Source of the DNA: a virus
IMG/VR virus record: IMGVR_UViG_3300000062_000468
Length of the DNA stretch: 64,000 nt
Strand: one strand, 5' to 3'
The translations under genes and the position numbers were made by a program. Positions 15,316-36,256 of the stretch are shown in pieces. How positions within the stretch are numbered: the first letter of the stretch is position 1; each line of letters opens with the position of its first letter. The notes beneath the pieces were generated by a model, which searched no databases, was not told the origin of the DNA, and saw only the letters and a list, made by a program, of their open reading frames with translations.

Positions 15316-16269
15316 TTATTTACATTCGTTTAATTTGTTTTCGAGTAATGGTATATCTTTTTCTTCGCCTCTTTTAAGTGCGTCTTTTGCTAGTAAATCA
15401 TTGTATTTTTTACAGTCTTTTATCAACCTTCTTATTTCTTTAGGATTATTGATATAGGTTTTTGCACCATCGAGACAGGCATCGTACCTTCTGGTAATTC
15501 CCGACTTCCACTTACTGACATTGGTAGCAAATGCACCATATAGACCCAGAGAACCCCGATTACAATTTTTTACCATCTCGTCCTTGTCTTCAATCCTACT
15601 GTAGTAATTATTAGTAAGTTGTGCTGAATGACCATCTTTGTATTTTCCAGAGTTATGAACGGCTATAATATTTAATCGCTTCAGTTCCTTTATATAGACG
15701 GGTATAGTAGCAGTGCTGAAGCCCCATGTAGAATTCATATAGGCGTGAGAGCGATTGGAATATTTCAGTGTATGATCTACAGAGGTGAGTAGTAATAGGT
15801 AAAACTGCACGAGGTTATAGGGGTCAACATTCTGCGAATCCCTAAAGATGCTTTGGATTTCTGATAAGGTACACATTATCCAGTTCGTAATACTAACCAT
15901 TCCTAATTCACGTTGTTTCGTTTCCACCCTAAGATGTTTACCCTCTAATATATATATGCCACATTTGTCGCTAATATCGCTGCGACTGACTATCTGTATG
16001 TATGATTGTTCGTGTAACCATTCAAAGGCAGAATTCATCTTTTTGATAAAAATATCATCTTTGCTGTTGGATATTATTTTTCTGAATATCATATAGTATA
16101 CAGTTTGGACATTCACATACACATATCGCTTGTTGGGTCTGTAGTATGAGTTTAATAACAGTGCCAACAATAATGTCGCTGAGTCTGGGTACGACCTACT
16201 GCCATTTCCGTAGTATAAGTACAGATTTTCGTTTTCGTTTCCTTGGTTCAATTTTTCACCTCCTCTCAA
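15316..16269 (-). CDS. Hypothetical protein, possibly a winged-helix DNA-binding/replication protein
   Basis: 317-aa ORF bordering the long AT-rich non-coding region; contains the HTH-like segment STATIPVYIKELKRLNII. Confidence 0.45.
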   Translation of the reverse strand: MRGGEKLNQGNENENLYLYYGNGSRSYPDSATLLLALLLNSYYRPNKRYVYVNVQTVYYMIFRKIISNSKDDIFIKKMNSAFEWLHEQSYIQIVSRSDISDKCGIYILEGKHLRVETKQRELGMVSITNWIMCTLSEIQSIFRDSQNVDPYNLVQFYLLLLTSVDHTLKYSNRSHAYMNSTWGFSTATIPVYIKELKRLNIIAVHNSGKYKDGHSAQLTNNYYSRIEDKDEMVKNCNRGSLGLYGAFATNVSKWKSGITRRYDACLDGAKTYINNPKEIRRLIKDCKKYNDLLAKDALKRGEEKDIPLLENKLNECK

Positions 16270-18306: not shown

Positions 18307-18729
18307 CTAATCCTCATCTTGCTCTACTTTAGCAGTAAAGAGGTTAACAGGCTCTGTATCTTCTTTAGTAGTAGTGGTAGCATCTTGTACAAGTGTCCGT
18401 GTTTTGCCTATCTGCTCTGGTGTAGGTGGTCTGTCTTTTGCGGGAGATAGCTCTTGCAGCTCTTGCAACCGTGTCTGGTACTCCTGTAAGCGTTGTACCT
18501 GCTCCGCTTGTGTGGGAGTACTATCTTCTATAGAATAGTGTAACTCGCAACCGATAACATTACATATGCGTTGTATATCCGCAAAAGATAGGTTTTTTTT
18601 GGCAAATGTTGCGTGTAAATTTTGTCCACTTATACCAAGTTTTTTGGCGACATCCTCTACAGTATAACCTCTGTTTTTTATAGCCATTTTAATATAATTT
18701 ACAAGCCTTGTATTATCTTCAAATATCAT
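18307..18729 (-). CDS. XRE/Cro-family HTH regulator
   Basis: TVEDVAKKLGISGQNLHATF helix-turn-helix. Confidence 0.8.
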   Translation of the reverse strand: MIFEDNTRLVNYIKMAIKNRGYTVEDVAKKLGISGQNLHATFAKKNLSFADIQRICNVIGCELHYSIEDSTPTQAEQVQRLQEYQTRLQELQELSPAKDRPPTPEQIGKTRTLVQDATTTTKEDTEPVNLFTAKVEQDED

Positions 18730-18835: not shown

Positions 18836-18864
18836 TTGACAATACAAAAGTGTTGTGATAAAAT
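18836..18864 (+). promoter_or_regulatory. sigmaA promoter
   Basis: TTGACA-17 nt-TAAAAT with extended TG. Confidence 0.75.
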
Positions 18865-18932
18865 ATAGCTAAGTCAAAACAAAACACTTTGACATCAACA
18901 AAAAAAACTTTCAAAATAAAGCAAAAAAAGTG

Positions 18933-18961
18933 TTGACAAAGAAAACTAGATATGATATTAT
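18933..18961 (+). promoter_or_regulatory. sigmaA promoter (tandem copy)
   Basis: TTGACA-17 nt-TATTAT with extended TG. Confidence 0.75.
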
Positions 18962-19507: not shown

Positions 19508-19543
19508 ACATATATAACAGGGTGGCTACCTGTTACAGGGTAG

Positions 19544-19756
19544 CTATTCATTTTCTAATTCCTCAATTTGACGATTAACTTCGTCAAGTTGTTTTTGAAG
19601 TTCATCAACTTCTTGTTGTGATTGTTTGGATTTTTCTATACTTTCTATAGCTTTATCCATTGCTTTACGTTGGGAATTTCCACCACCACAGGCGGTTAAA
19701 GTGAAAGATAAAATTGATAATGTTGAAACTGTTAAAATGATTTTAATTTTCTTCAT
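19544..19756 (-). CDS. Small lipoprotein
   Basis: Signal peptide with lipobox LTAC, followed by a short coiled coil. Confidence 0.75.
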   Translation of the reverse strand: MKKIKIILTVSTLSILSFTLTACGGGNSQRKAMDKAIESIEKSKQSQQEVDELQKQLDEVNRQIEELENE

Positions 19757-19771
19757 TTGTAAAATCTCCTT

Positions 19772-20071
19772 TTAGTTGTCTTGTTTGCGAGGAACGAAAT
19801 TTATTTCTAAATCGTAGCCGATAGCGTCAGTAATTTCAAGTAGTCGGTTAATACTAATATTGCTATTTAAGCGACTGTTGAGTGATTGAGGGGTTATATT
19901 TAGCTTGTCAGCTAGTGTTCTTTTAGTCATGTTGGCATTAATTAAAGCAATATCAACATGACGTTTTAACTCTTTTGAGTTGGTACATATCATAAAAATA
20001 CCACCTTTCATTGTGAAAAATAAACATATATCCGTACTGATTATTAGTATAAACTTATGCAATAGTAACAA
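19772..20071 (-). CDS. XRE-family HTH regulator (true start probably at MICTN)
   Basis: TKRTLADKLNITPQSLNSRL helix-turn-helix. Confidence 0.75.
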   Translation of the reverse strand: MLLLHKFILIISTDICLFFTMKGGIFMICTNSKELKRHVDIALINANMTKRTLADKLNITPQSLNSRLNSNISINRLLEITDAIGYDLEINFVPRKQDN

Positions 20072-20125: not shown

Positions 20126-20407
20126 TAATTCAAGTCAAAGAGATAACAACTAATCAACAAACACCTTTGACCTACATAAACAAACGAACTTTGATAATTA
20201 AATAGTGGGGGAGGACAGAAAAAACGTTGGTAACGAAAATCCATCACTTCCCACGGACGCAAGTGAATGAGCCACTAACTCAAACTTGCGTGACCTTAAA
20301 TACATTTGCATTATAACCCTAAACGGTTAAAAATGCAACAAAAAAGAGCCTTCATTGAGTTGGCGCTCTAGGCTCTTTCTTAAACGAAAGACTAACCAAA
20401 ATACAGT

Positions 20408-20551
20408 TTACTTATTGTAGTATTCGCTAGTGATAGACAAATTGCCGAATGAAAAGTTGAAGCTTTTCAAATTGGCTCTTGCTAAACACATAGCACTAAT
20501 GATAATACAAGTTGCGACTATAATAAGTAACTTTTTGATTTTAGTAGTCAA
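20408..20551 (-). CDS. 47-aa hydrophobic peptide, type I toxin-like (copy 1)
   Basis: GGAGGTGA RBS 7 nt before TTG. Sequence MTTKIKKLLIIVATCIIISAMCLARANLKSFNFSFGNLSITSEYYNK. Not in the ORF track. Confidence 0.65.
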   Translation of the reverse strand: MTTKIKKLLIIVATCIIISAMCLARANLKSFNFSFGNLSITSEYYNK

Positions 20552-21087
20552 TAATGCTTCACCTCCCTTCATGGGAGATTATGAGCAGTTGCCATGACTG
20601 CACACAACAAGAGTATATCACACAAGTTAAGCGAGGGCGATATATGAATGTATTTTACGACTACAGCAATCAGCAATGGTATGTTGTAGAAAATGGTAGA
20701 TATATAGAAGTAGAAAGCGATTCAGAAGGCTACGACTATATAGAAAGCCAACTAAACTAAAAACAAATAACGTTTTTTTCATGTAACATATAAACAGTGA
20801 TTTCTCATTTCAAATTAATTATTGTTGAAAGTAGGCACAATCACAAGCGACAAACACAAGCAACCAAAGGGGCAGAAAATATACCTTTTGATGATATGCT
20901 TCGTAATTGCAAAACGTTAGAATGTGCCTATTATTGAGCAATATAATAACAATGACACTTGAAAAAGTAAGAAACTTCTTATATAATAGGGAAAGAAAAG
21001 GGCGAGAATTACCAAATGCGACCATATGGTCGTTTTTAGGATAAGCGAGCACGTGCTCGTATTTGAAAAAGGCGGTGATAATTTCAC

Positions 21088-21297
21088 ATGACGATATATC
21101 AAAAAGTAAAAACGGCTTGCATGATAGAGGGTAAGACATTAACCGAAGTAGCGAAAGAATTTGGCTCAAGTCAACAGACTTTTTCACAACGGTTACAAAC
21201 GGGCAAGTTTACACAAGAAGAACTTGAACGAATATTTTCAATTATTGGTTGCAAATATATATCTTATGTAGAACTATCAGACGGGAAAAGGCTATAA
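21088..21297 (+). CDS. XRE-family HTH regulator
   Basis: TLTEVAKEFGSSQQTFSQRL helix-turn-helix. Confidence 0.8.
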   Translation: MTIYQKVKTACMIEGKTLTEVAKEFGSSQQTFSQRLQTGKFTQEELERIFSIIGCKYISYVELSDGKRL

Positions 21298-21372
21298 AAG
21301 GGGCATTGTACTAATTTTGTATAGTGCTTTTTTGTTAGGAAAAATCACGACACAACAAAGGGGTAACAGAGA

Positions 21373-21645
21373 ATGAAAAAGACAACATGGGAAGAAGTTC
21401 AGTCGGAAATAAAGGCACTAGAAGGGCAAGTTTTTGAGGATATCAGCGAGGTAAACGAGACAATCATATGTGCATTTGGCGATTATTCTTACTACAACGA
21501 AGCGGAAGTATTAGTATCTGAATCATTTTCGTGTTCTCACCTGAAAAAATATTCAGCTTACGTCAATCATGCCAAAGCGCCAATGATTGATTTTACTTTA
21601 TACATAAATGGTGGAAATTTAACACTAGATGACGTAATCGTATAA
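21373..21645 (+). CDS. Hypothetical protein
   Basis: 90-aa ORF, first gene of the plus-strand early arm. Confidence 0.7.
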   Translation: MKKTTWEEVQSEIKALEGQVFEDISEVNETIICAFGDYSYYNEAEVLVSESFSCSHLKKYSAYVNHAKAPMIDFTLYINGGNLTLDDVIV

Positions 21646-21664
21646 AATTAATAGGAGGCGAATC

Positions 21665-22021
21665 ATGCAATCATTACATAAGATAGAAACAGTTTGCACT
21701 CGTGAAGAGTGGGAAAGATGGCACAATAAAAACAAGCGGAAAATTGCAATATATAAGATGAAAAAACGATTGAAGCAAGCGTACAAATTATCATTTTTGT
21801 TGGCTTGTTTTTTTGTTATAACAAGTCCAATATCAATACTAATTTACTTTTTTACAAACGGGAATTACAAAAGTAGTAACAATTCGTGGCTGATAATTGG
21901 TTTAGTTATCAGCTTAGTTGTTGTGATAATAGAGTGTTACATGGAGGATTGGTTAAATGATACAGGTGGAAAACATTACAAAAACAAGCGAACAGGACAT
22001 CATAGGCGAACTTCTCAATAA
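21665..22021 (+). CDS. Two-TM membrane protein
   Basis: GGAGG RBS and two hydrophobic segments. Confidence 0.7.
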   Translation: MQSLHKIETVCTREEWERWHNKNKRKIAIYKMKKRLKQAYKLSFLLACFFVITSPISILIYFFTNGNYKSSNNSWLIIGLVISLVVVIIECYMEDWLNDTGGKHYKNKRTGHHRRTSQ

Positions 22022-22090
22022 AGACATTTTAGCGTTTGAAGAGGTGCGGGACATTACAACAAGAACAGAACGGCAGACAACTTTATATAT

Positions 22091-22702
22091 GTGGAAGAAG
22101 AAGCAATTAAACAGAAAACCAAGGAACAAATGATGATTTACAAAAAGCTATCAAAGTGGAATTTCTATAAGCTGAAAAGGGGAAAGGTGGAAAATATGAG
22201 GTATGAAGGAATGACAAAACGTGAAGCGTGTGGAATGTGGGTAAGCGAATCTAATGCTTTTCCAGTATGGATGATTGAAAAGGTTGCGGGTGAATATTTT
22301 GATGGAATCAGGAAGATAGCAACACCATTATTTGTAGGCGATACGGTATTTTACAAGGGCGAAAGTTGCGAAATTAAAGAGATAAATGAAGAAAATGAAA
22401 CAATAACAATCATGAACGATGATGAAGAAATAAGGGTTAGCAAAAACAAGATTGAAAAAGAAGAATATACTTTTTTTCCGTCATGGTCTACAATGTGGGA
22501 ATTTTCAAATATTAAAGAGAAACAAGCGAAATTGGTTGCCAAATGTGGTTTTGATATGTACAAACTGGAAGAAGACGGAACAATTTTGATAGGTATTGAT
22601 GGGGGCGGTTGTGACTTTTTTGATGAATATTGGCTACCGCTGTACGACGCTATGAACATGAGGTGGCATGATGAAGCAACCGAAAAAGAGAATGTAGCTT
22701 AA
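22091..22702 (+). CDS. Hypothetical protein (true start probably ATG 22196)
   Basis: Conserved-looking C-terminal GIDGGGCDFFDEYWLPLY. Confidence 0.7.
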   Translation: MEEEAIKQKTKEQMMIYKKLSKWNFYKLKRGKVENMRYEGMTKREACGMWVSESNAFPVWMIEKVAGEYFDGIRKIATPLFVGDTVFYKGESCEIKEINEENETITIMNDDEEIRVSKNKIEKEEYTFFPSWSTMWEFSNIKEKQAKLVAKCGFDMYKLEEDGTILIGIDGGGCDFFDEYWLPLYDAMNMRWHDEATEKENVA

Positions 22703-22910
22703 TACATAAGTGGAAAATAAGCGAAACAGGAATCGCAAAGAGGCACAACAATGATAACGCTGTAAGCGAATGAAGATATTACAGGCGGAAAAAGGATAAT
22801 AATAAACCTTTTGAGGAAAGAAACAGCCTCATGGACAAAATGAATGAACTTAACACAGCACTAGGAAATTTATAAACCATGATAGAAGAAAGATTTGAAG
22901 GAGGTGTAAA

Positions 22911-23279
22911 ATGTTAAAAGCAGAATGTGAAAAGCTAATCAAAAGAATATTAACAGCAGAACAATATCAAGCCATAGAAATTTTATATATGGATTCGCTA
23001 CTTGATAAAGTGAAATTTTGCAAAGCATTGAAGCCAATTATCAAAGCTATACCACTTAGAAAGACAGAAAGAAAAGTCATACAAATAGGCGTAACTGATA
23101 GAGCAGGAAATTTCCAAACACCCAACAATTGTTGGTGGCATACTAAACTTGTGGAAGTGGTTGATGTTGATATTAAAAGTGGAAAAACTAAAGTTAAAGA
23201 AATACCTAACAGCTATGATTGTAGATACAAGGATTCGACATATTTACGACATGATGAAGTGGAGTTTGTGGAAAATTAG
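22911..23279 (+). CDS. Hypothetical protein
   Basis: GGAGGT RBS, 122 aa. Confidence 0.75.
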   Translation: MLKAECEKLIKRILTAEQYQAIEILYMDSLLDKVKFCKALKPIIKAIPLRKTERKVIQIGVTDRAGNFQTPNNCWWHTKLVEVVDVDIKSGKTKVKEIPNSYDCRYKDSTYLRHDEVEFVEN

Positions 23280-23299
23280 CAACCCGATAAAATACGGAT

Positions 23300-23497
23300 T
23301 TGAAAGTGAGGTTTAAATATATGAAGCGTATAACAGAAAAAGAGTATGCGGAAATATTAGATGATTACAAAGGCATATATCACGGACATCAAGGAATATT
23401 ATTACCACGCGCAAAAGGGAAAAGATGTTGTTTCATAAAAGGACATGGTACAGATTTGTTTATTGAAGGTGTGTCACTGGAAATAGTAAAGGAGTAG
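23300..23497 (+). CDS. Hypothetical protein
   Basis: Short co-oriented ORF. Confidence 0.55.
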   Translation: MKVRFKYMKRITEKEYAEILDDYKGIYHGHQGILLPRAKGKRCCFIKGHGTDLFIEGVSLEIVKE

Positions 23498-23503
23498 AAT
23501 AAA

Positions 23504-23893
23504 ATGAAATTAAAATTGAAAAATGTGTTAGATTATATCGAAACTTTAGACTGGAATGTAACAGATGATAGTGAATACACAAGAGAAAAGAAACCACAAA
23601 GTAACTTTATGATAAGTCAATACTCGCCAGCTGGTGAAGATTTTAGCTTTACCGTTGATTTAAAGGGTGATACTGATGTGGAAAAAATCGAAGGACTAGT
23701 AGAAGAAATTAATAGCTACTATGAAGATTTTGATATTGACGAACATATTGAAATGTTGATTGAAGCTAGAAAGAATGGGGTCGGTGGAGTACCAACTACA
23801 AGCGAATTGGTAGAGGACGCAAAAAATATTGACGAAATGCTCAAAAAATTATCTGATAATGTGGAAAATTTTGTAGCTGATAAAGTAGCTTAA
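23504..23893 (+). CDS. Hypothetical protein
   Basis: AAGGAG RBS, acidic, 129 aa. Confidence 0.75.
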   Translation: MKLKLKNVLDYIETLDWNVTDDSEYTREKKPQSNFMISQYSPAGEDFSFTVDLKGDTDVEKIEGLVEEINSYYEDFDIDEHIEMLIEARKNGVGGVPTTSELVEDAKNIDEMLKKLSDNVENFVADKVA

Positions 23894-24222
23894 TAAATCA
23901 TGTAGAAAATAAAGGAGAAGAAAGACATGGAACGAAAAATATATGCAGTGTGGAAAAATCATGAAGTAGTAGGGTATGTGAAATTATCAGAAGAGGACGC
24001 ATATTTTTTAAATGGAATTAAAGATATAGGAGTTTATTTTGGATTTGATAAAACCATCAGTCCAGAAATGTGTGAAAACACAAAAGAGTAGCCTAATAAA
24101 ACGGATATTTGATGGACGAAAGAGAGGTATATAACAAGTGGGAAAATCAAATGGATATAAAACTTTCTTAAAGGAATTAAAAGCGGAAAATTCAAATGAA
24201 AAAAGGGATAACATAAAGTGGT

Positions 24223-24456
24223 ATGACTATCAAGCTAACTAATGAGGAAATGGCGAACATCAGACAAGAATTAAATAGGAAATTAGCAGTGGAGTATCTA
24301 CAAACCTTTAATGATAAGATAAAAAACATTGAAGAACTGGGAAACAACTTATACTTCTTAGATGAATTAGGGGAGTATATACAGGCTGCTACTGATGATG
24401 AATACGAAAATATACGTTGTCGCTTTGAAGATGATGAAAGAGTTAAGTGGAACTAA
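24223..24456 (+). CDS. Hypothetical protein
   Basis: 77-aa co-oriented ORF. Confidence 0.6.
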   Translation: MTIKLTNEEMANIRQELNRKLAVEYLQTFNDKIKNIEELGNNLYFLDELGEYIQAATDDEYENIRCRFEDDERVKWN

Positions 24457-25040
24457 TAACCGTAAAACTGTATTTCTGTATGGTTGATAGGTGGAAAATT
24501 TGGAGGACAAAAAGAATGAATATTAAAGAATTATCGGAGGTAATGATTGAACATGGTCTTGTGATACGAGCTATTCCAAAAACAGTAACAGCTATTTACG
24601 ACCCACGACATAAAAATAAATATCCTAGCGGAGTAATTAAGTATGACGAACGATTAAATAGAGATATGTTGTTTGTGGAGTCTATCCCAGGTAATGCAGG
24701 AAAATTCATTATACGAAGTGAAGAATCTTCTAACGCAACGGTACAGTTCTATAAGTCAAAAGTGTATGATACACCAATTCAAGCAGTTGAAGATTTTTTG
24801 GAAAACCTAAATCCAAAACAGCGAAAAAATGATATGAAGGATACAAAAACGATTATCAACAACGCACGAAAGGAACTATGGGATCGTGAAAATTGGTTAG
24901 TTGAACGATACAACGAATTATACAACGAATCAACAATAGCCGAAATGGAAGATACAGAAAGAAGAAATTTACAATCAACCATCAGAGCGGAATTGTCTAT
25001 TTGTTGCGAGGCAATTAGCAGACTGTGGCGACTGGTTTAA
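24447..25040 (+). CDS. Hypothetical protein (true start probably ATG 24516)
   Basis: GGAGG RBS before MNIKEL. Confidence 0.65.
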   Translation: MELITVKLYFCMVDRWKIWRTKRMNIKELSEVMIEHGLVIRAIPKTVTAIYDPRHKNKYPSGVIKYDERLNRDMLFVESIPGNAGKFIIRSEESSNATVQFYKSKVYDTPIQAVEDFLENLNPKQRKNDMKDTKTIINNARKELWDRENWLVERYNELYNESTIAEMEDTERRNLQSTIRAELSICCEAISRLWRLV

Positions 25041-25135
25041 TGAGTGGGGGATAATACCGTAAAACGATAATTCTAATAGTGTGGAAAATAACGCTGTACG
25101 AATTTCGTACAACGCTTAAATTAAGGAGAAAAATA

Positions 25136-25978
25136 ATGAATATGATAGCAATAAACAATCAACAGCTACCAATTAGAGAGTATCAAGGACAAAGGGTAGT
25201 TACGTTTAAAGATATTGATGCAGTGCATGAAAGACCAGAAGGAACAGCAAAAAGGAACTTTTTGAAAAACGCAAGTCACTTCATAGAAGGTGCTGATTAT
25301 TATAATATTTTTCTAAAGGACGAATTTCGTACTTTAGGATTAGATGTACCTAATAGAGGTATATTGGCATTTACGCTGATGGGATATTTGATGTTAACTA
25401 AATCTTTTAAGGACGATTTAGCGTGGCAAGTACAAAGAAGGTTAGTTACTTCATATTTTCAGTTACAACAGTCACAAACGGAACAACCCCAACAACTTTA
25501 TACATTACATACTGGTGTACAAGCTGAGATTGGTTCAATAGCAGAAAGAGTGGCGAGACAGACAGTTGAAGAATCGTTAGTAAATTATAAACCAATTCCT
25601 AATAATATAGAAGAAACTGTTAAAGAAGCCTTGATAAGTATTAGAGATAAAGCTATCGCCAAGATGGATACTGTAGCATATGTGGAAAAACAACCAACGA
25701 TGGACTATATGATTCGCAAAGCTGTTCAACGGTTGGTGGAATTATCTGGTGATAACTCTTATGGATTTAATCTTACATATAGAAAAGTATATCAGAATAT
25801 GCCTTGTGATTGGAGATATCGCAGGTCAAGATATAAAAATAAGAAAGGTTATAAGAACTTACCAATCAAGCTAAAGATGATACAGGAAGATGGTAAATTA
25901 TTCAATATGTTTATTGATACAGTTAATAATATGATTACCGAATATGAACAAGCGGAATCAACGACCGTAAAAGGATAG
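25136..25978 (+). CDS. ORF6N (KilA-N-like) domain phage regulatory protein
   Basis: LPIREYQGQRVVTFKDIDAVHERPEGTAKRNF...GYLMLTKSFKDDLAWQVQR. Confidence 0.85.
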   Translation: MNMIAINNQQLPIREYQGQRVVTFKDIDAVHERPEGTAKRNFLKNASHFIEGADYYNIFLKDEFRTLGLDVPNRGILAFTLMGYLMLTKSFKDDLAWQVQRRLVTSYFQLQQSQTEQPQQLYTLHTGVQAEIGSIAERVARQTVEESLVNYKPIPNNIEETVKEALISIRDKAIAKMDTVAYVEKQPTMDYMIRKAVQRLVELSGDNSYGFNLTYRKVYQNMPCDWRYRRSRYKNKKGYKNLPIKLKMIQEDGKLFNMFIDTVNNMITEYEQAESTTVKG

Positions 25979-25983
25979 TTCTA

Positions 25984-26256
25984 TTGGGTATATGTGGAAA
26001 AATAAAACGAAAGGATAACAATTATATGAAAGTTTCTGAAAGAGAATTAATCGAAGCATTTAAAAATGAAAAACCAATTGAAGATGATGATATTAACCAA
26101 AAGGATTGTTTCACAACTAATATTTATGAACAAATATCGGGTGTCATATGTAAGTGTGACAATGTTGGTTGTTATGGTTGTGTTCATAATGAAAAATACC
26201 AATTATCTAAGCAAGAATCGGAAGATGAATATTTTTGTTGTTATGCCAATTATTAA
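25984..26256 (+). CDS. Cys-rich hypothetical protein
   Basis: CKCDNVGCYGC; co-oriented. Confidence 0.55.
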   Translation: MGICGKIKRKDNNYMKVSERELIEAFKNEKPIEDDDINQKDCFTTNIYEQISGVICKCDNVGCYGCVHNEKYQLSKQESEDEYFCCYANY

Positions 26257-26374
26257 AGGTAAAACCACAATAGAATGATGATTTGATAGTATGTGGAAAA
26301 TTCAATTATATCATAAACATACTGAATGATTAAATTGAAATGATTGATGATTAAATTAAAGAGAGGGCTATGTA

Positions 26375-26644
26375 ATGGAAAAACGCTATAGAGATAGAGA
26401 CGGAAGGTTGACAATTAAACTGGAAGAACTTGTAGCGCTTACAAAAGAAGACGGTCTTTCGTATTATAAAGAGGGTGAAACATACCGATATGGTACAGAA
26501 GATAGGGTTTATGTTTGTTTAGAAATTGGCGAAGATATTATCAAATTCATAAGTGGAAGTAATGAATTGTCAATAGACAAACATTCATGCGGAACTTTCT
26601 TGCCAGATATTGCAAGCGAAGGAATGGCACTGACAAAAGTATAA
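26375..26644 (+). CDS. Hypothetical protein
   Basis: GAGGG RBS, 89 aa. Confidence 0.65.
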   Translation: MEKRYRDRDGRLTIKLEELVALTKEDGLSYYKEGETYRYGTEDRVYVCLEIGEDIIKFISGSNELSIDKHSCGTFLPDIASEGMALTKV

Positions 26645-26982
26645 GCGGAAAATTCAGAAGGAGAGGATCAACAATGAAAACATACAAAGGAATGGAATAT
26701 ATTACACTGGAAGAAATGGAAGAATATGGTTACACTTCGCAGCCTTTTGGCGAAGCGGATAGTTATAGAATGATACCACTAACTACAGAACAGGCAAAAG
26801 CCGTTGTGAAAAGCGGAAAGTCTTTGATGAGACTGTATCCAGATGATACGGAAGAATATGTTGATACCGATGAGGCGTTTCAAAATGTACTTGATGATGA
26901 TATGATGTTTGGTTTGGAAATTAGAATATATGAAAATTGGTTGGATAAAATATATATTGATTTTCATTTGGGTTATGCTTGA
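26587..26982 (+). CDS. Hypothetical protein (true start probably ATG 26674)
   Basis: GGAGAGG RBS before MKTYKG. Confidence 0.6.
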   Translation: MRNFLARYCKRRNGTDKSISGKFRRRGSTMKTYKGMEYITLEEMEEYGYTSQPFGEADSYRMIPLTTEQAKAVVKSGKSLMRLYPDDTEEYVDTDEAFQNVLDDDMMFGLEIRIYENWLDKIYIDFHLGYA

Positions 26983-27069
26983 TACATATGTGGAATTAAA
27001 CCAAAGTGAATAACGATTTGGTTGTGTTTTAAAGTAGAAAATATTAAATTAAAAGAAAAGAGGTGAAAA

Positions 27070-27267
27070 ATGAAGGGAATAAAATTAGTTTGTGAGTGGA
27101 AAAATGACAAGGGTACATTTCAACTACATAGGTATGGCAACAATGATGATTATTCACTAACATTAGATAAAGGATATAGTGTAAGGGGTACTTTAGAAGA
27201 ATGTGTTAAAGACCTTGAGGTTAATTATGTTGAAGTATTAGACCAACTTACCAGTCAAATACTTTAA
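27070..27267 (+). CDS. Hypothetical protein
   Basis: GAGGTG RBS. Confidence 0.65.
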   Translation: MKGIKLVCEWKNDKGTFQLHRYGNNDDYSLTLDKGYSVRGTLEECVKDLEVNYVEVLDQLTSQIL

Positions 27268-27344
27268 ATGAATAATTCTGTCAGCATGTGGAAATTTTGC
27301 AATGAAATGATATACTAGATTAAATTAGCGAAAGGAAAATTAAG

Positions 27345-27671
27345 ATGACCAATGTGAATAATACAGATATACGGATTTTATCTTATCTTCTACATTATCC
27401 TTATCCACGCGACTACAGTGTTGATACATATTTTGTGAATACAAGCAAGTATCAGAAAAATTCGTGGGTTTGTTCAAGAGTAGAAGCTGTGGAAAGGTGG
27501 GTAATAAAACATGGTGGAAAATTTGAGGTGTTGTCCGAGTGTATGATAAAAGGATTACGTAAAGGATGTATGGTTAAGATAATTTTCCCAACTTACACAA
27601 AGCGGAATATGAAAAAGATAATGAGTATACTGTATTATAATCAAACACGTATTTGTTCAGATGGTGTATGA
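27345..27671 (+). CDS. Hypothetical protein
   Basis: AAGGA RBS, 108 aa. Confidence 0.6.
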   Translation: MTNVNNTDIRILSYLLHYPYPRDYSVDTYFVNTSKYQKNSWVCSRVEAVERWVIKHGGKFEVLSECMIKGLRKGCMVKIIFPTYTKRNMKKIMSILYYNQTRICSDGV

Positions 27672-27685
27672 TATGTGGAAAAGTC

Positions 27686-27714
27686 TTGACGTACGCTTAG
27701 ACGTATGCTACAAT
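27686..27714 (+). promoter_or_regulatory. Promoter/operator of the yefM-yoeB operon
   Basis: TTGACG-17 nt-TACAAT, with a repeated ACGTA in the spacer. Confidence 0.7.
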
Positions 27715-27737
27715 AAAGAAAAAAGGGAGGTCTTATT

Positions 27738-27989
27738 ATGCCAACAATTATGATTACAGAGGCTAGACAGGACATTTATAACGTAGCAAAAGAGGTATGC
27801 GATAATGCCGAACCTACTCTCATTGTAAATAGTCGTGGAAACAATGTGGTTATGATGTCAGAAGATGAGTACGAAGATATTAAAGAAACATTATTCTTCT
27901 TAGAAAATCCAGTAATGATGAAGAAGATAACCGAAGCGTTAAATACGCCACGAGAAGACTATGTGAAATTTGACGATTGGAGAAAATAG
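27738..27989 (+). CDS. yefM: Phd/YefM-family antitoxin
   Basis: ITEARQDIYNV...PTLIVNSRGNNVVMMSEDEYEDIKETL. Confidence 0.9.
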   Translation: MPTIMITEARQDIYNVAKEVCDNAEPTLIVNSRGNNVVMMSEDEYEDIKETLFFLENPVMMKKITEALNTPREDYVKFDDWRK

Positions 27990-27990
27990 T

Positions 27991-28254
27991 ATGTACGAAC
28001 TTATGTGGTCTAAACAGGCGATAAAAGACTGGAAGAGATTGGATAGGTCTAAATATGTGGAAAAAGCAAAAATATTATTAGGTATTATTGAAAAAAATCC
28101 ATATCAAGACCCGCCATTACTTAGGACAATGCAAGGGAACTTAAAAGGTACTTATTCAAGAAAAATTAGTGGAAAGCATAGGATGATGTACGAAGTGTCA
28201 GAACAAAAAAAAGAAGTATATCTTATTGGTATGTGGACTCATTATCACGAATAG
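27991..28254 (+). CDS. yoeB: Txe/YoeB-family toxin
   Basis: WSKQAIKDW...KNPY..P...LKGTYSRKISGKHRMMY, with C-terminal HYHE. The ATG lies 1 nt after the antitoxin stop. Confidence 0.9.
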   Translation: MYELMWSKQAIKDWKRLDRSKYVEKAKILLGIIEKNPYQDPPLLRTMQGNLKGTYSRKISGKHRMMYEVSEQKKEVYLIGMWTHYHE

Positions 28255-28432
28255 TAAGTGGAAAATTTAATAAGGTAACAAGTGGAAAATTCTCAAGTGT
28301 AAAAAGCTATGGGAATTTTTTGTTGCAATAAAATATGTAGAACAAAGTTAAGTGGAACTTCTATAAATAACAAGGTGTCAGTTTTTGTGTAACTGGCGAC
28401 TGACACCTCATGAATGGCTAACAATAAAATTC

Positions 28433-28576
28433 CTACTTGCCGTAGTATTCGCTAGTGATAGACAAATTGCCGAATGAAAAGTTAAAGCTTTTGAGATTGG
28501 CTCTTGCTAAACACAAGGCACAAATAACAATTATCATAGCCACAACGACAAGAAATTATTTGAATTTCATTGTCAT
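28433..28576 (-). pseudogene. Second copy of the type I toxin-like peptide, with TAA at codon 7
   Basis: Same 144-nt length as 20408-20551 and a near-identical 3' half. Reads MTMKFK*FLVVVAMIIVICALCLARANLKSFNFSFGNLSITSEYYGK. Confidence 0.65.
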
Positions 28577-28895
28577 ATAAAGGTTCGCCCTCCCTTCATG
28601 TATTTGTAGGAATGTTGCTCCTACAGAATTATATTATAACATGAAATGCGAGGAAGAAACGGAATTAAAATGAGAGTGTTTGGCGACACTTTTACTATAG
28701 AAGTTCTGCTTACTTTTGTTCTACAACACGCGTGGAAAATGGAATAAAGTGCAACAAACTATAGTAGTCATTTGGCGGTGACTGCTATTTTTATTAAAAC
28801 GAATGACTAATAGACCTAAACAAGAATAAAGGCTGAGAAATAGTAACCAATAACAGCAAATAAGTGGAAAATTTCCACGTGAATAGGAGAGAAGA

Positions 28896-29846
28896 ATGGA
28901 AACAACAAAAAGAAACGAAAAAGGTCTAGGGTCTGCAATTGGAGCAATATTTTACAGACAAGGAGATGGTACAAAGCATAATATAGAAAATCAAACGGTA
29001 GGAGAAAGTAGTAGAAGCGGAGTATTTGATGAGCCAGAAAAGGTAGGGTTTGTATATCGAACTATGAATTATGACCAGTTCCAGTATGAAGAAACAAATA
29101 GAGATGTGGAAAAAATTGATAAGTTAGTGAAAGAAGCTAAGAAGCCACACGGAGTTATCGTGCCAATTATAGTTGATGAAAACATGATTGTGTATGACGG
29201 ACAACATAGACTTGAAGCGTGTAAAGTGACGAACACACCAATTAAGTACATAGTTGACAAAAATGTGGGTGTAGAGGAAATGATCAGTTTAAATACCAGC
29301 AGTCAGAACTGGAAGATAGACGATTATGCGGCACATCATGCTAAAAGAGGACTTAAAGCCTATCAAGAAATTCTGAGGTTGGCTGATAGATATGGCGTCA
29401 CAGTATCAACAATAGCAGGATTGGTCGGAGTTGAGAATCCTTCTGGTATATATGGCGCAAAGTATGAGGCTTTCCAGAATGGCAAAGCTAGAATAGATGT
29501 GTCATATGTGGAAAATACACTTGATGACTTTGTGGAGTTTGTACGAGATACAAAAACAAAATATAGTCGTCTTTACAATTTTATTAAAGCATATGAGGGA
29601 TTGCATCAAGTAGTGTGTTTTGATAACGATAGGCTTGTCAAAAAAGTGAATGAAAAATTAGATAGGGACTCTTTTGCTAGGATAAGCGGAACGTCTGATA
29701 TGAGAGAAGAATTGTTGAAAGTTTACAATCATGGATTGACGGTTAAGTCACCGTTAAAAATCAAATATAACTATGACGAAGGAAAATCTATTTGTATTTT
29801 GTCAAAGAAAAATGTGCCAAAAATTGATTGGCGAAAGAAAGAATAG
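28896..29846 (+). CDS. ParB/Srx-like N-terminal domain protein
   Basis: PIIVDENMIVYDGQHRLEAC motif. Confidence 0.75.
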   Translation: METTKRNEKGLGSAIGAIFYRQGDGTKHNIENQTVGESSRSGVFDEPEKVGFVYRTMNYDQFQYEETNRDVEKIDKLVKEAKKPHGVIVPIIVDENMIVYDGQHRLEACKVTNTPIKYIVDKNVGVEEMISLNTSSQNWKIDDYAAHHAKRGLKAYQEILRLADRYGVTVSTIAGLVGVENPSGIYGAKYEAFQNGKARIDVSYVENTLDDFVEFVRDTKTKYSRLYNFIKAYEGLHQVVCFDNDRLVKKVNEKLDRDSFARISGTSDMREELLKVYNHGLTVKSPLKIKYNYDEGKSICILSKKNVPKIDWRKKE

Positions 29847-29882
29847 TATACACCAAAACAAATTATAGAAGGAGATGAAGAT

Positions 29883-30962
29883 ATGAATGTAACAACAGTA
29901 CAACAAAGCGGAAATTTTGGAGAGGCGATTTTAGGATTTATAAAAATTCAACAAAAAAATTTAAAAGCTGATTTTGAATTGAAACGTAGATTATCACACC
30001 GTTCATATCTTCAATCTGTGGAAAAATTAAAGAAAGAAGGTAGACATGTGGAAGATTTAAAATTGCAAGAAGATACACAAGTAGAAGAACTATCTAATGA
30101 TATTAATGTGTTGACGGCTGAAGTAATGGCTTATAAACAGATTGTTGGTCAGAGTGTGTGGGAGATTGGCAGACGATTAAAAAAGGTAAAAGATGAAGAT
30201 TTGACTCATGGAGAATTTGAGAAATGGGTAGAGTCAGTGGGCATACATCCTAGAATAGCAAGGCAGTTTATGAAAATAGCAAGGGAGTTACCAAAACGGA
30301 GCACGTGCTCCGATTTAAGTGATAGGGTTCTTTATGAGATTGCAACACTGCCAGAAGAAGAACGAAACAAAGAGCACACAACCAACAAAGGAGAACAAAA
30401 AGAAGTTTATTCCATGACAGTGAAAGAGTTACAAGAACTCAAAAAACATCTCAAAGAACGAGATGTTAAAATCCAAGACCTCAAAGACGAGAACGAAGTC
30501 TTGCGAAACACGCCACCACTAATTAAAGAAATAGAAGTTACACCTAACGATTATGCCGATTTATTAGAAGCCAGAACATATCATGGTAAAAAAATCGACC
30601 AACAAGAAAACAAAATTAATGCGCTTAAAATTGAAATTCAAGGATTAAAGGAGAAAAAAGTTGATGATGCCACGGAAGAGCTGTTAATCAAAGAAAAAGT
30701 AACGGCGCTAAAAAAACAGATGGATAATATGACTGTGGAAATTTCCCATCGCAAGAAAGTCCAAGATTTTTCATCTAAGGTGTCAACCTTCTTCGAAAAA
30801 GAAATGGTTGGAATATTGTATTCAGAATCAATCAAGCAACTTAATACTGAAGATGATATTCAAAGTCTCGTCGGAACTATTAATAATATTCAAGAGTGGT
30901 GTGATGATATGCGGAAAATTCTTGAGGCTAAAGGTAATATTGTAGATTTAGAAGTTGAATAA
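29883..30962 (+). CDS. DUF3102-like domain coiled-coil protein
   Basis: WEIGRRLKKVK...HGEFEKWVE...ARQFMKIARE. Confidence 0.75.
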   Translation: MNVTTVQQSGNFGEAILGFIKIQQKNLKADFELKRRLSHRSYLQSVEKLKKEGRHVEDLKLQEDTQVEELSNDINVLTAEVMAYKQIVGQSVWEIGRRLKKVKDEDLTHGEFEKWVESVGIHPRIARQFMKIARELPKRSTCSDLSDRVLYEIATLPEEERNKEHTTNKGEQKEVYSMTVKELQELKKHLKERDVKIQDLKDENEVLRNTPPLIKEIEVTPNDYADLLEARTYHGKKIDQQENKINALKIEIQGLKEKKVDDATEELLIKEKVTALKKQMDNMTVEISHRKKVQDFSSKVSTFFEKEMVGILYSESIKQLNTEDDIQSLVGTINNIQEWCDDMRKILEAKGNIVDLEVE

Positions 30963-31006
30963 TATGTGGAATAATAGCAAGTCAAACTCAAAACCTCTAT
31001 AGACTG

Positions 31007-31056
31007 AAACAACAGAAAACCTCTAAACATATTTTGGGTATGCTAGAGGTTTTCTG
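31007..31056 (+). terminator. Long hairpin after the DUF3102-like gene
   Basis: CAGAAAACCTCTA...TAGAGGTTTTCTG. Confidence 0.6.
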
Positions 31057-31440
31057 CGTAAGTTTATTAAATTAACAAAATTAGAATAAATGAAGAATTG
31101 ATTATATAAGATGTTATTTGTCGTTATGATGTTTGTCTTTTTTGAAAATAGACATCTTTAGTATGTCAATTATCGTCAATTTGATGTCTGAAACATTATT
31201 GTTATCAACACAATGTATGACAATAAAACCAACGACAATTATTAGTATTGCTGTGTTACTTATAATCATTCAACCCTATCCTTTCTTTCGTTTTAGTGGC
31301 AATATGCGTGCCTACTACCAAGGGTAATTATAAAGGATATGTGGAAAAGTTACAACATAGTTTGACTTGCTTTTATTTATAGAAACTAAAAATCAACAAA
31401 CAAAAAAGAGAAAATAACAAGAGAAAAAGGAGAAATAATT

Positions 31441-32208
31441 ATGTGTCAATTTAAGTCAGGAGTAGTATTTAAAAACAGAGTGGTTTTAGCATCAAGAGAA
31501 AATGAGAGTCATTCAGCATTGCTAGAAAGTTTGGGGGTTGAAGATACTCGTGAAAATGCGTTGACAAAATTCGTTAGAGTGGAGTTAATTCCAAAAGACG
31601 ATAATAAAACAACAGATGTATCAGAGTGGAAATATATTGTAGACCAAGATGATACACCGCAATGGTATGACGAAGATACTGAAAGATATGAGCAAGAGTT
31701 TAGAGATGCGGTTAAAGAATGGTGGGAAGGTAAATTTGAAGAAATTTGCGGACACCCATGGACAGTGATGAAAGAAGATGAGCTGGGTACATATTATGTA
31801 CTTGATGGCATTACTGAAAGCGGTGAGTTTGGAGAGACAAACAATTACGAAATATCTGATACTCGTAAAAGGCTTAATGAAAGTAAACTAGTAAAAGATT
31901 TAATAGAGAAATTTGGCGACAGGTTAGTTCCAATTACGTTAGATTTAACCTCATTAGACGGACTGACCGATTATGGTGTTGTGGAAGGAGATTTAATTGC
32001 ACCGTTGACATTTGATTTATACAGAGATAATAGAAGATATGGTGGTATACCCAAACTTGATAAGGGATACTTTCTAGCAACCCCGGACTCAACACCTTCT
32101 GGATACGGTTCTCGCTATGTTCGGGGCGTCGACTCCGATGGTGGCGTGGACTACGACGGCTGTGGCTACTCCAGGGGCGTGCGTCCGTTTTTTATCTTAA
32201 AATCTTAA
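31441..32208 (+). CDS. Remote DGR target protein with C-terminal CLec-like (DUF6273-like) variable domain
   Basis: C-terminal ...DLTSLDGLTDYG...FLATPDSTPSG...GVRPFFILK is paralogous to 53010-53633 and contains VR2. Confidence 0.85.
   Translation: MCQFKSGVVFKNRVVLASRENESHSALLESLGVEDTRENALTKFVRVELIPKDDNKTTDVSEWKYIVDQDDTPQWYDEDTERYEQEFRDAVKEWWEGKFEEICGHPWTVMKEDELGTYYVLDGITESGEFGETNNYEISDTRKRLNESKLVKDLIEKFGDRLVPITLDLTSLDGLTDYGVVEGDLIAPLTFDLYRDNRRYGGIPKLDKGYFLATPDSTPSGYGSRYVRGVDSDGGVDYDGCGYSRGVRPFFILKS
32110..32192 (+). repeat. DGR variable repeat VR2
   Basis: Aligns without gaps to the TR at 54098-54180, with 16 mismatches at TR adenines and 1 T>G before the 3' divergence point. Confidence 0.9.
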
Positions 32209-32312
32209 ATCTTCGTATCTTCGACGAAGTAGAGGATAGCCGATAACGTTGGTGTGGGTGCGACAGCACCCGCTTCGACAACTTAAAAGCGACTGAAAGG
32301 AGCGTATGGTGT

Positions 32313-32537
32313 GTGTTTACAGAGATAGGCAGAGCGATATTAGCGAGAAAATTAATAGAAGATTTGATTATCGAAAAAGGATTTGGAGAATTAACGAAGG
32401 AAGATGCAAATTACATAGTGGAAAATTACGGACTTAAATATAAAGAGTTGATTGATGCTTATGAGTATTTCACATCTCACGAGGATCAAACAGAATTCAG
32501 AGAACAATATGTGGGAAATTTTGGAGGTGTAAAATGA
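32313..32537 (+). CDS. Hypothetical protein
   Basis: Uses the AAGGAG inside the post-VR conserved block as its RBS. Confidence 0.6.
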   Translation: MFTEIGRAILARKLIEDLIIEKGFGELTKEDANYIVENYGLKYKELIDAYEYFTSHEDQTEFREQYVGNFGGVK

Positions 32538-32794
32538 ATGAATCGTGGGTAGACCTTGATGAAGGTCAAAAAGAATATTTACAATTGAAAGAAATTGTTG
32601 AAACAAAGAAGTGTTCATTGCAAGAATTACACAAAGAACTTTATGGATATAACGAAGGGAGTTGTTGGTTTGATGTAGCTTACAAGTCAATTGTTGCTAC
32701 TATTAAACAAGTAAGTGGAAAATTTGTTCTGATGGATAAGTATAATGTGTATTCAGAAGACGGCGGTAGAAAATTGAGAGGTAAAAAGGCATAG
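32534..32794 (+). CDS. Hypothetical protein
   Basis: GGAGGT RBS; ATGA overlap with the upstream gene. Confidence 0.7.
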   Translation: MNESWVDLDEGQKEYLQLKEIVETKKCSLQELHKELYGYNEGSCWFDVAYKSIVATIKQVSGKFVLMDKYNVYSEDGGRKLRGKKA

Positions 32795-32880
32795 ATAACA
32801 AGTGGGGAATTTACCGTTGAATGTGAGTTCTATGAACATTTTAGATACGAATTAAATAATAAAAATAAAGGAGAATGTAA

Positions 32881-33153
32881 ATGAATAGAGAAAAATATGA
32901 ACATAGTGGAAAACAAATGAAAATCAAGAATTTTGTATCAAATGGACTCGCTGGAAAAATTATTGAGGTCGAAGATTATTGGGAAAATGTAAGTGGTAAA
33001 TCATGGATGTTATCAGATGGGAATATAGCGGCGATGAATTATGGATTCAGAACTGGCACACAAGGAGGTGTACCAATAAATGACGAAGTGGTTTATGGAA
33101 AAGTGGACGGATTGGGATATTTGCTTCATGTATCAGAATTGGAAGAAAAATAA
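32881..33153 (+). CDS. Hypothetical protein
   Basis: AAGGAG RBS. Confidence 0.7.
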   Translation: MNREKYEHSGKQMKIKNFVSNGLAGKIIEVEDYWENVSGKSWMLSDGNIAAMNYGFRTGTQGGVPINDEVVYGKVDGLGYLLHVSELEEK

Positions 33154-33712: not shown

Positions 33713-33773
33713 AAGAGCGTTTTTATGGACGAAAACCCTATAAATGACTGTTTTTACAGACAAGGAGAAGACG

Positions 33774-34223
33774 ATGAGAGAAATAATAGGAGATATTACA
33801 GAAATTACAAATGGAATCATAATGCACCAAGTAAATTGTCAAAATGTGATGGGGTCTGGTGTAGCAAGGGCATTATATGAAAAATATCCGCAAGTAAAGT
33901 CAGATTATCATAAATTTTGTGAAGGACAAAAGCCTAAGAAATTATTAGGATGTGTTCAGACTGTTTTCATTGATAGGAATTTGATAGTTGTTAATTCATT
34001 TACACAGTTGAATTTTGGAAAGGGTAATATTACAGGAGTTAAGTATACTGACGAAAAGTTGTTGATTAACAGTATTAAGGAGCTTGATAGCTTTGCAAAA
34101 GCAAGAAGCCAAACTGCGTATGTTCCTAAGTATATTGGTTGCTGTCAAGCTGGTGGCGACTGGGCGGCAATTGAATCGGCATTAAAAGAGACAGATATTG
34201 TTGTGGTTGGTTTACCTCAATAA
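33774..34223 (+). CDS. Macrodomain (Poa1p/DarG-like ADP-ribose hydrolase)
   Basis: GDI...HQVNCQNVMGSGVA...P.IGC..AGGDW. Confidence 0.9.
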   Translation: MREIIGDITEITNGIIMHQVNCQNVMGSGVARALYEKYPQVKSDYHKFCEGQKPKKLLGCVQTVFIDRNLIVVNSFTQLNFGKGNITGVKYTDEKLLINSIKELDSFAKARSQTAYVPKYIGCCQAGGDWAAIESALKETDIVVVGLPQ

Positions 34224-35149: not shown

Positions 35150-36256
35150 TATAAAGCATATAAATATAGAATATATCCAAATAAGTTTCAAATAGAATTA
35201 ATACAAAAGACTTTTGGATGCTGTAGGTTTGTTTATAATCAAATGTTAGAGTACAAGCAAAAGAAATATAAAGAAGGTGGAATGACTTTGACTGATTACG
35301 AATGTAAAAACTATATGGTTCGCACGTTAAAGAAAGAGTACGAATGGTTAAAAGAGCCTGATAAATGGGCTTTAGATAATTCGGTATTTAATATGTGCAA
35401 GGCTTATAAGAATTTCTTTAAGGAAAAGAATAAAGGGTTTCCAAAATTCAAAAGTAAACATAGAAGTAAAAAATCTTATATGACAACATGTGTACCAACG
35501 GGAAATACTTATAATATTGTAGTGGATTTTGAAGAGCATAAGATTAAGCTTCCAAAATTATGTTTAGTGAAGTATAAGGGTAGCTTGTGTTTTAAAGGAG
35601 TGATCAAATCAGCTACAATATCACAGCGTCCATCTGGAAAGTATTATGTGTCAGTTCTTGTTGATGAAAATACCGATTTAACCAAACCAGAAATCACAAA
35701 CAAAATTGGAATAGATTTAGGTTTGTCTAATTTTGCAATATTATCTACGGGCGAGAAGGTTAACAACCCAAAACATCTATACAAATCGGAGCAACAACTG
35801 AAATAATTACAACGAGCTTATTGTAGAAAGAAGAAAGATTCTAAGAACAAAGAGAAGGCGAGGATATTACTTGCTAAGAAACACGAAAAGATAGCTAATC
35901 AAAGAAAGGATTTTTCAAACAAACTTTCAAAACGGCTAATAGACGAAAACCAAGTTATAGTCATAGAGAAGTTGAGAACACAGAATATGATGAGCAATCA
36001 CAAATTAGCAAAATCAATAAGTGATGTTGGGTGGGGAGAATTCACTAGACAACTTAAATACAAGGCTGAATGGTACGGCAGAGAAGTTATAGAAGCCGAC
36101 ACATTTTATCCATCGAGTCAGATCTGTTCAGAATGTGGACATAGAGATGGAAAGAAAAAATTACATATTAGAGAGTGGACTTGTAGTAAATGCGGTGTGG
36201 TTCACGACAGAGATATAAATGCTGCTAAGAATTTACTAGCGTTAGCAGGGGAATAG
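35150..36256 (+). pseudogene. tnpB: IS200/IS605-family TnpB with one internal TAA (35804-35806) and no intact start
   Basis: KAYKYRIYP HTH, RuvC GIDLGL / IEKL / DRDINAA, and zinc finger CSECG..CSKCG. The frame continues across the stop. Confidence 0.9.

Follow-up and report, generated by a model that had tools for sequence, protein, structure and literature searches.

Short, oriented, over-represented sequences have been described in several systems. In cluster A mycobacteriophages, the stoperators (sites of the L5 gp71 repressor) are asymmetric, one-way, and conserved, lie mostly in short spacers near gene ends, and have a silencing role. They are 13 to 14 bp in length, number approximately 30 per 50 kb, and occur in both arms; in L5-type systems, one motif serves both for the stoperators and for the operator of the early promoter. 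The RegB endoribonuclease of T4 has GGAG targets in early messages, with a preference for the spacers, and inactivates many early mRNAs. Chi and KOPS/SRS sequences, in turn, are polar across the replicon. Here, we analyze the word GTGGAAA, which is repeated in one orientation within a block of a 64,000-nucleotide stretch of viral DNA (IMG/VR record IMGVR_UViG_3300000062_000468; the whole stretch is referred to as the window). To judge from its sequence, the window derives from an uncultured relative of Bacillus phage SPbeta. A leftward arm of genes occupies 1-20 kb and a rightward arm 20-64 kb; the block lies in the rightward arm, next to the zone from which the two arms diverge.

An exact count identified 35 copies of GTGGAAA on the plus strand within 21611-32912, the number given in the initial annotation of the window; every coordinate listed there was matched, and the further copies are those at 27835, 28169, 29106, 30735, and 31626. 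The single reverse copy that had been reported within the block (28872) and the approximately three plus-strand copies reported for 33-64 kb (46131, 55350, and 55900) were likewise exact, and three copies occur on the minus strand in 1-20 kb. When k-mer counts of the block were set against those of the remaining window, a second form emerged, GCGGAA(A), with 14 plus-strand copies in the block, none in 33.2-64 kb, and none on the minus strand anywhere in the window. The original description of the motif as GTGGAAA was therefore sound but had overlooked this form. With both forms considered, the seven-letter word is found 43 times on the plus strand of the block and once on the minus strand, i.e., it is asymmetric and has one orientation relative to transcription.

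A scan of single-base variants defined a strict core, G-[T>C]-G-G-A-A-A-A. The full word is WWG[T>C]GGAAAAWT (flank consensus WWGTGGAAAAWT), with GTGGAAAA or GCGGAAAA as its 8-base forms. Across the aligned copies, position +7 was A in 28 of 35, positions +8 to +10 were T or W, and a weak ATAT was seen upstream. No further conserved positions were found from -60 to +60 around the copies, indicating a free-standing word of approximately 10 to 12 bases without a fixed partner and arguing against the copies being relics of some longer repeat. A literature search for the word returned only primers.

Genes in the window were called from open reading frames (ORFs). Approximately 60% of the copies lie inside coding sequences, where all three frames are used (12, 8, and 3 copies in frames 0, 1, and 2, respectively); the same tally placed 13 copies between genes. 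In the null analysis, 12 GTGGAAA copies fall within the 2251 intergenic bases of the block, a density 2.2 times that of coding sequence, and these spacer copies are frequently situated 0 to 40 nucleotides (nt) past a stop codon. Markov models of order 1, 2, and 3 predicted 2.6, 4.7, and 9.7 copies in the block, respectively, versus the 35 observed; models of orders 4 and 5 trained on the block itself absorbed the word. Dinucleotide shuffles of the whole window, counted on both strands, yielded 10.6 ± 3.8 copies of GTGGAAA, and none of 100 reached 42. When synonymous codons were shuffled within genes, such that proteins and codon usage were kept, 6.8 ± 2.2 copies were obtained (maximum of 14 in 1,000 shuffles) versus 23 observed. 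By far the strongest local clustering of any 8-mer in the window was that of GTGGAAAA; 28 of its 28 copies lie in the block (binomial P of approximately 4e-21), and its z-score was 19.7 against an order-2 Markov model. Enrichment thus persisted under the low-order Markov and the codon-shuffled nulls, so that the outcome named as refuting in the initial annotation did not materialize, and the view of the initial annotation that codon usage is not the cause was borne out by the shuffles, by the use of three frames, and by the spacer copies. These results support the word being a selected, polarized nucleic acid signal and not a by-product of codon usage.

The copies are more evenly spaced than expected at random, as the coefficient of variation of spacing was 0.66 versus 0.97 for random placement (P = 0.002). 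Mean gaps were 190 nt for the six-letter and 269 nt for the seven-letter word, and no two copies were separated by less than 24 nt. The borders of the array (Table 1) are sharp, since the first rightward gene, encoding a helix-turn-helix (HTH) protein, is untagged, the next 25 cistrons are all tagged, and none is tagged from 33157 onward. Read from left to right, the rightward arm opens with a promoter-like site, two palindromes, the Cro-type HTH gene, and a hairpin with a T-run, after which the array begins. The hairpin was read from the sequence; a simple scan did not report it. No copy of the word with up to one mismatch is present at the candidate early promoter. The promoter-proximal palindromes gave three matches at up to two mismatches versus 0.42 expected and are probably conventional operators, unrelated to the polar word.

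To examine conservation, we turn to relatives of the window. A protein search in metagenomes identified two close lineages, and only two independent lineages are known to carry the array. The first (L087-L089), in which the ParB-like protein is 72% identical, carries 19 GTGGAAA and 6 GCGGAAA copies on the plus strand and none on the minus strand, again with a mean six-letter gap of 190 nt. It too has an on/off pattern, with 6 untagged genes, approximately 23 tagged genes, and 7 untagged genes, and a terminator/promoter scan found only a weak promoter-like match at the start of its array (L088 5011-5040). Approximately 3 kb of this array (L088 5208-8100) shows no nucleotide homology to the window except for three matches of 34 to 42 bases; as the array persists there, the word has been kept while the genes have changed. 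Across segments that align at 71 to 76% identity, the two phages have 14 of 27 sites at matching positions, with T and C swapped at four of them, and lost sites have a replacement within a few bases to tens of bases. The second lineage (L092) is a 99% variant, on a contig of 292 kb, in which a 1.2-kb replacement cassette inside the array carries four sites of its own. At three orthologous positions that lie inside the array in the relative and outside it in the window, the word is present in the relative only. The initial proposal of a polarized signal confined to the block adjoining the divergence zone is thus upheld by the nulls, the relative, and the comparison of orthologues.

No comparable clustered one-way word was found in SPbeta (whole genome) or in Psychrobacillus phage Perkons (first 46 kb), nor was a comparable density seen among approximately 115 unrelated loci. 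One locus (L015) has eight plus-strand copies but is unrelated and was set aside. Scans of viral contigs with four proteins, and of genome contigs with an alignment of the ParB-like protein, yielded no syntenic relatives, their matches being generic anti-repressor phages or distant Bacteroidota loci.

Downstream of the array the word has been purged from genes of the same direction. Under synonymous shuffling, the rightward genes of 33.2-64 kb would be expected to contain 23.5 ± 4.1 copies of G[TC]GGAA and 8.1 ± 2.4 of G[TC]GGAAA; 7 and 0 were found, respectively. Among 1025 hexamers in this region, GTGGAA ranked third in under-representation, whereas among 183 in the block it ranked first in over-representation. 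No depletion was seen on the sense strand of the leftward arm (7 versus 6.1 expected). A loss restricted in this way to codirectional genes is what would be expected of a signal with relevance for rightward transcription only. Markov nulls trained on the downstream region gave a weaker depletion (z of approximately -2 to -2.5), and overall the evidence for depletion is good but not overwhelming.

The word is clearly a control signal. Its polarity, its presence in each cistron, the sharp borders behind the early promoter and hairpin, its gain inside and loss outside the array, and a constraint limited to the rightward arm together point to a cis signal of rightward transcription. The explanation that we favor, and to which we give an even chance of being correct, is that the word is a transcription-linked, orientation-dependent tag that unites swappable early accessory genes under one control. 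The block would be a domain of rightward early accessory genes in an SPbeta-like phage, with at least one sense-strand copy in each of its cistrons, and the word would be a cis-acting tag tied to rightward transcription. A single sequence-specific reader, presumably a protein whose reading is coupled to transcription and whose effect is negative, would recognize the word in one orientation. The swappable genes would thereby come under common control and most likely be switched off together, such that a fast-changing accessory set could be treated as a unit by one reader. Among the functions put forward in the initial annotation, silencing is the closest to this explanation.

Two versions of the tag were judged to fit equally well, and each by itself is possible but doubtful. 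By analogy with stoperators, the reader could bind DNA and act as a one-way block to elongating host RNA polymerase, with which the orientation rule and the spacer preference are consistent. By analogy with the logic of T4 RegB at GGAG, the reader could instead bind or cut the transcript of each cistron; the density per cistron and the early-enriched, later-depleted pattern are consistent with this, and the orphan MazF-family RNase of the window would be one possible reader.

A number of observations weigh against a transcription-linked tag. Its reader is known as candidates only, the palindromes at the early promoter are unrelated to the word, a word of 8 to 10 bases is short for a specific DNA-binding repressor, and one site per 190 nt far exceeds what a roadblock needs. 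For an RNA tag, predicted single-strandedness at the sites (0.58) barely differs from that with shuffled flanks (0.57), a search of Rfam gave no matches at E values up to 0.1, the opposite arm is not purged, and Perkons has a MazF gene but no array. Moreover, as all genes of the array are co-oriented, a signal of the DNA strand is inseparable from a signal of transcription direction.

Candidate readers comprise the three small HTH proteins, the ParB-like/DUF3102 pair, and the orphan MazF, the last of these only if the word acts on RNA. The HTH proteins are paralogous and of the Cro/C1 type (18307-18729, 19772-20071, and 21088-21297); two are encoded leftward and one rightward, flanking the divergence zone, and the signature ...Q..L.......L....I....IGC.L is common to all three. 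The DGQHR/ParB-like and DUF3102 genes also open the early operon of small temperate siphophages (L090 9375-11813 and L091 340-2782), directly after a cI/cro-type switch, and the pair seems to be a conserved early module. No functional literature on DUF3102 was found.

Table 1. Positions in the window of the array, its borders, genes within it, and candidate readers
Feature	Position	Strand	Remarks
HTH_26 protein of 140 aa, repressor-like candidate reader	18307-18729	-	HTH part 58% identical to the protein of the relative
Candidate rightward early promoter, TTGAAA-17-TATAAT	20959-20987	+	Consensus match only
Two 14-bp palindromes, CGACCATATGGTCG and CGAGCACGTGCTCG	21019-21059 (starts 21019 and 21046)		Between promoter and first gene
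First rightward gene, Cro-type HTH protein of 69 aa	21088-21297	+	No copy of the word
Hairpin and T-run, GCATTGTAC-N5-GTATAGTGC-TTTTTT	21305-21336	+	Directly 3' of HTH gene; array starts downstream
25 consecutive cistrons, mostly orphan	21373-33153	+	Each with at least one copy in coding sequence or following spacer
One-way word array, WWG[T>C]GGAAAAWT	21502-32912	+	35 GTGGAAA plus 8 GCGGAAA (43 seven-letter copies), or 61 six-letter G[TC]GGAA
ORF6N anti-repressor	25136-25978	+	Tagged cistron
YefM/YoeB-type toxin-antitoxin pair	27738-28254	+	Tagged cistrons
Palindrome GTGGAAAATTTCCAC	28864-28878		Contains the only minus-strand copy in the block; 18 nt before ParB-like gene; not conserved in the relative
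DGQHR/ParB-like protein	28896-29846	+	Tagged cistron
DUF3102 protein	29883-30962	+	Tagged cistron
Reported DGR target	31441-32208	+	Tagged cistron
Same-direction genes depleted of the word	33157-64000	+	Synonymous-shuffle null
MazF-family endoribonuclease	43478-43786	+	No visible antitoxin; E = 9e-12 to solved MazF structures; in the depleted zone

A Chi-like or KOPS/SRS-like word would act through AddAB, FtsK, or SpoIIIE, host enzymes that translocate along DNA and would recognize it there; the DNA that enters first would thereby be protected or oriented. AddAB reportedly processes free injected ends up to Chi, and several properties of the word suit such a role: it is short and strictly one-way, its coverage is even, its GYGG core recalls the 3' ends of the Chi sequences GCTGGTGG, AGCGG, and GAAGCGG, and its AAGCGGAA form contains the Bacillus subtilis Chi core. 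SPbeta provided a positive control for this type of pattern, as it carries strongly strand-locked, G-rich words that we take to be the Chi and SpoIIIE/FtsK-type polarity of the host chromosome, AGCGG being the B. subtilis Chi core. In SPbeta (L083-L085, NC_001884.1) AGCGG, AGGGGA, and GAGCGG occur 50, 54, and 20 times on the plus strand and 6, 4, and 0 times on the minus strand, respectively, in both arms; these host words are polar genome-wide whatever the direction of the genes. The word studied here is instead local, and its depletion further along the same strand is not predicted by Chi. In addition, orthologues outside the array lack the word, and should the ends be situated in the divergence zone, where those of Perkons are, an entering enzyme would read the other strand. 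No genome-wide polar word of the SPbeta kind was found in the window, which may mean that its phage is not a long-resident integrated prophage. Chi-like protection, which the initial annotation had suggested, is disfavored by this comparison, and we consider a Chi-like or KOPS/SRS-like role unlikely.

The block could also be a long terminal repeat or a first-step-transfer segment of the T5/SPO1 type, with the word marking entry, end duplication, or packaging. T5 and SPO1 have host-takeover repeats of 10 and 13 kb, respectively, to which an 11.5-kb domain with sharp borders and many small early orphan genes bears a resemblance; in addition, the word has been purged beyond the domain, and the genome ends of Perkons are in the homologous divergence zone. 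The terminal repeat of Perkons is, however, only 264 bp, and the array does not start at a noncoding end but within the rightward operon, 0.4 kb into it in the window and 2 kb into it in the relative. We know of no such word in the T5 or SPO1 repeats either. There is little likelihood that the block is of this kind, and the entry signal suggested in the initial annotation keeps a small probability.

Fast gene turnover within the array raises the question of whether the copies are junction words at which short-homology recombination swaps gene cassettes. The PeSL cassettes of T4-type phages, which have an early promoter and a stem-loop at each junction, would be a parallel. Three patches of the window (23268-23305, 24436-24477, and 25968-26001), with 86 to 95% identity, join otherwise unrelated genes; one patch starts at a copy, one ends in a copy, and one is just upstream of a copy. 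Many copies lying just past stop codons would also suit junctions, but recombination at the majority that lie inside genes would be destructive. Neither a partner promoter or stem-loop, nor conserved flanking positions, nor a structural signal accompanies the word, and downstream depletion and even spacing would be left unaccounted for. Junction words are accordingly considered quite unlikely.

Use of the array as a scaffold on which the DGQHR/ParB-like protein loads or spreads, for partition or anti-silencing, appears improbable. The gene for this protein is situated within the array, and the one palindromic pair of the word is found just ahead of it; the word also loosely resembles half-sites of parS (GTGAAACA) and Noc sites. 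However, parS is a palindrome of approximately 16 bp that occurs in few copies and is bound by dimeric ParB, whereas the sites of the array are asymmetric and all point one way; the palindromic pair (28864-28878) is itself not conserved. An array is lacking in small phages that share the ParB-like/DUF3102 pair, and the DGQHR motif of the protein is one seen in DndB-like proteins. The partition scaffold considered in the initial annotation is disfavored by the nonpalindromic sites and by the small phages.

An array of DnaA boxes (consensus TTATCCACA, with a free fifth position) that titrates host DnaA is very improbable: although 14 copies read TGTGGAAAA, the complement of TTTTCCACA, and so fit a loose TTWTNCACA box, the block has 0 copies of the consensus form GTGGATAA, the fourth G is invariant here although DnaA boxes leave that position free, the preceding T is present in only about half of the copies, and GCGGAAAA is accepted, such that the variant scan largely refuted this explanation. 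An origin as a by-product of composition or of the ancestry of paralogous genes, to which the purine-rich coding strand and the ability of high-order Markov models trained on the block to reproduce much of the count would lend themselves, is refuted by the codon-preserving null, the relative, the downstream depletion, and the comparison of orthologues, and has next to no likelihood.

Several other candidates were tried and rejected. A two-box promoter was dismissed because no partner occurs at any fixed distance and some sites are too near the next ribosome-binding site, and resemblances to Sigma-H, ECF -35, and AbrB TGGNA sequences were dropped for the same reason. Pairing with 16S rRNA (CUUCCGC region) was rejected as the perfectly complementary form, GTGGAAGA, is not enriched. 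The known repeated element of this phage group is SPBRE, the 15-bp element of the SPbeta master repressor MrpR, found in approximately 10 promoter regions (PMC10516654). Its core, AATATGTATAT, derived here from ten published target regions, is absent from the window beyond chance. Although the word resembles SPBRE in being a repeated element in the same phage group, SPBRE/MrpR operators are unrelated to it in sequence, number, and placement.

With regard to the phage itself, the split YonO-type RNA polymerase encoded in the minus-strand arm shares 50 to 54% identity with the homologues of SPbeta, phi3T, and Perkons. Resemblance to Bastille-like Bacillus phages is that of one conserved protein of the window, and no close DNA match was found among deposited phages. 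A search for NadR look-alikes placed the host in the Bacillota, at the level of phylum. The window contains 33 GATC sites versus 199 ± 13 expected, a six-fold avoidance, which suggests that the host exerts pressure through a restriction system of the Sau3AI/DpnII type.

Around the divergence zone, approximately 2 kb between the leftward arm and the HTH repressor-like gene (16270-18300) is without a convincing ORF. A segment that overlaps its start (15949-16540) shares 95% identity with the relative in surroundings of approximately 70%, and by comparison with Perkons, 16270-18300 is a candidate for the genome termini or a pac site. In 18836-18961 and 19520-19591, two rightward near-consensus promoters (TTGACA-17-TAAAAT and TTGACA-17-TATTAT), each with an upstream TG, are followed after approximately 600 nt by two terminator-like hairpins, with no rightward ORF between. 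This arrangement possibly specifies a noncoding RNA antisense to the leftward small genes. A repeated element of approximately 190 nt is present at 20382-20600 and 28413-28600 of the window and at L089 1-184; the copies are 72 to 77% identical and are kept in the relative. Preceded by a GGAGG site, a small hydrophobic peptide is encoded on its minus strand (54 aa, 20408-20572; 36 aa, 28433-28543). In this the element resembles the type I toxin-antitoxin loci bsrG/yonT of SPbeta; one of its copies lies inside the array. The YefM/YoeB-type pair (27686-28254) has a strong promoter of its own, TTGACG-17-TACAAT with TG, and three copies of the word.

Between the array and an integrase-like gene is a motif-free stretch with fragments of an IS605-type TnpB (OrfB_IS605 and Cas12f-like TNB domains) in two ORFs (window 35282-36256; L092 16945-17958). 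Across approximately 33.2-36.9 kb of the window, the relative keeps only a homologue of a 149-aa gene (window 33762-34210, corresponding to L089 2703-3152), and this region may include recent insertions.

Early accessory regions hold most of the unknown anti-defense and host-takeover genes and turn over fast. A word that is required for residence in such a region and purged next door would imply a shared step of control or protection, and to our knowledge no such step is on record, whether for SPbeta-like phages or for any other phage of the Bacillota. Once found, the reader could provide a handle on the timing or silencing of early gene sets, and phage genomes from metagenomes could be screened for such domains with a simple sequence marker. 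With somewhat less than even confidence, we propose a very dense operon tag of 6 to 8 bases, present at least once per cistron, that is written into genes as they enter the hyper-variable early domain, erased as they leave, and read one way, and that is distinct from stoperators, Chi, and RegB. If true, it would be a previously undescribed kind of phage control over, or protection of, swappable early genes.

Compared with the described systems, the array is like stoperators in that its sites are asymmetric, one-way, distributed along transcription units, enriched in spacers, and conserved among relatives. It differs from them in having an 8-base core, a site every 190 to 270 nt, and most copies inside genes; in addition, it is confined to a single 11.5-kb domain (21.5-32.9 kb) rather than occurring in both arms, the word is not found at the early promoter, where the palindromes are unrelated, and it is purged downstream. 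Like the GGAG targets of RegB, the word is short, lies on the sense strand, and favors spacers; it is enriched in the block and depleted in the rightward genes downstream, but the opposite arm is not purged. Unlike GGAG, the word has 6 to 8 bases and is not part of the ribosome-binding site. No RegB homologue was identified. With Chi, KOPS, and SRS the word shares its shortness, strict orientation, over-representation, and a similar GYGG core, but those sequences are polar across a replicon, whereas this word is local, tied to one operon, and depleted beyond it. Thus, where tested, the array departs from each of its closest counterparts, stoperators, RegB/GGAG, and Chi, in at least one defining feature.

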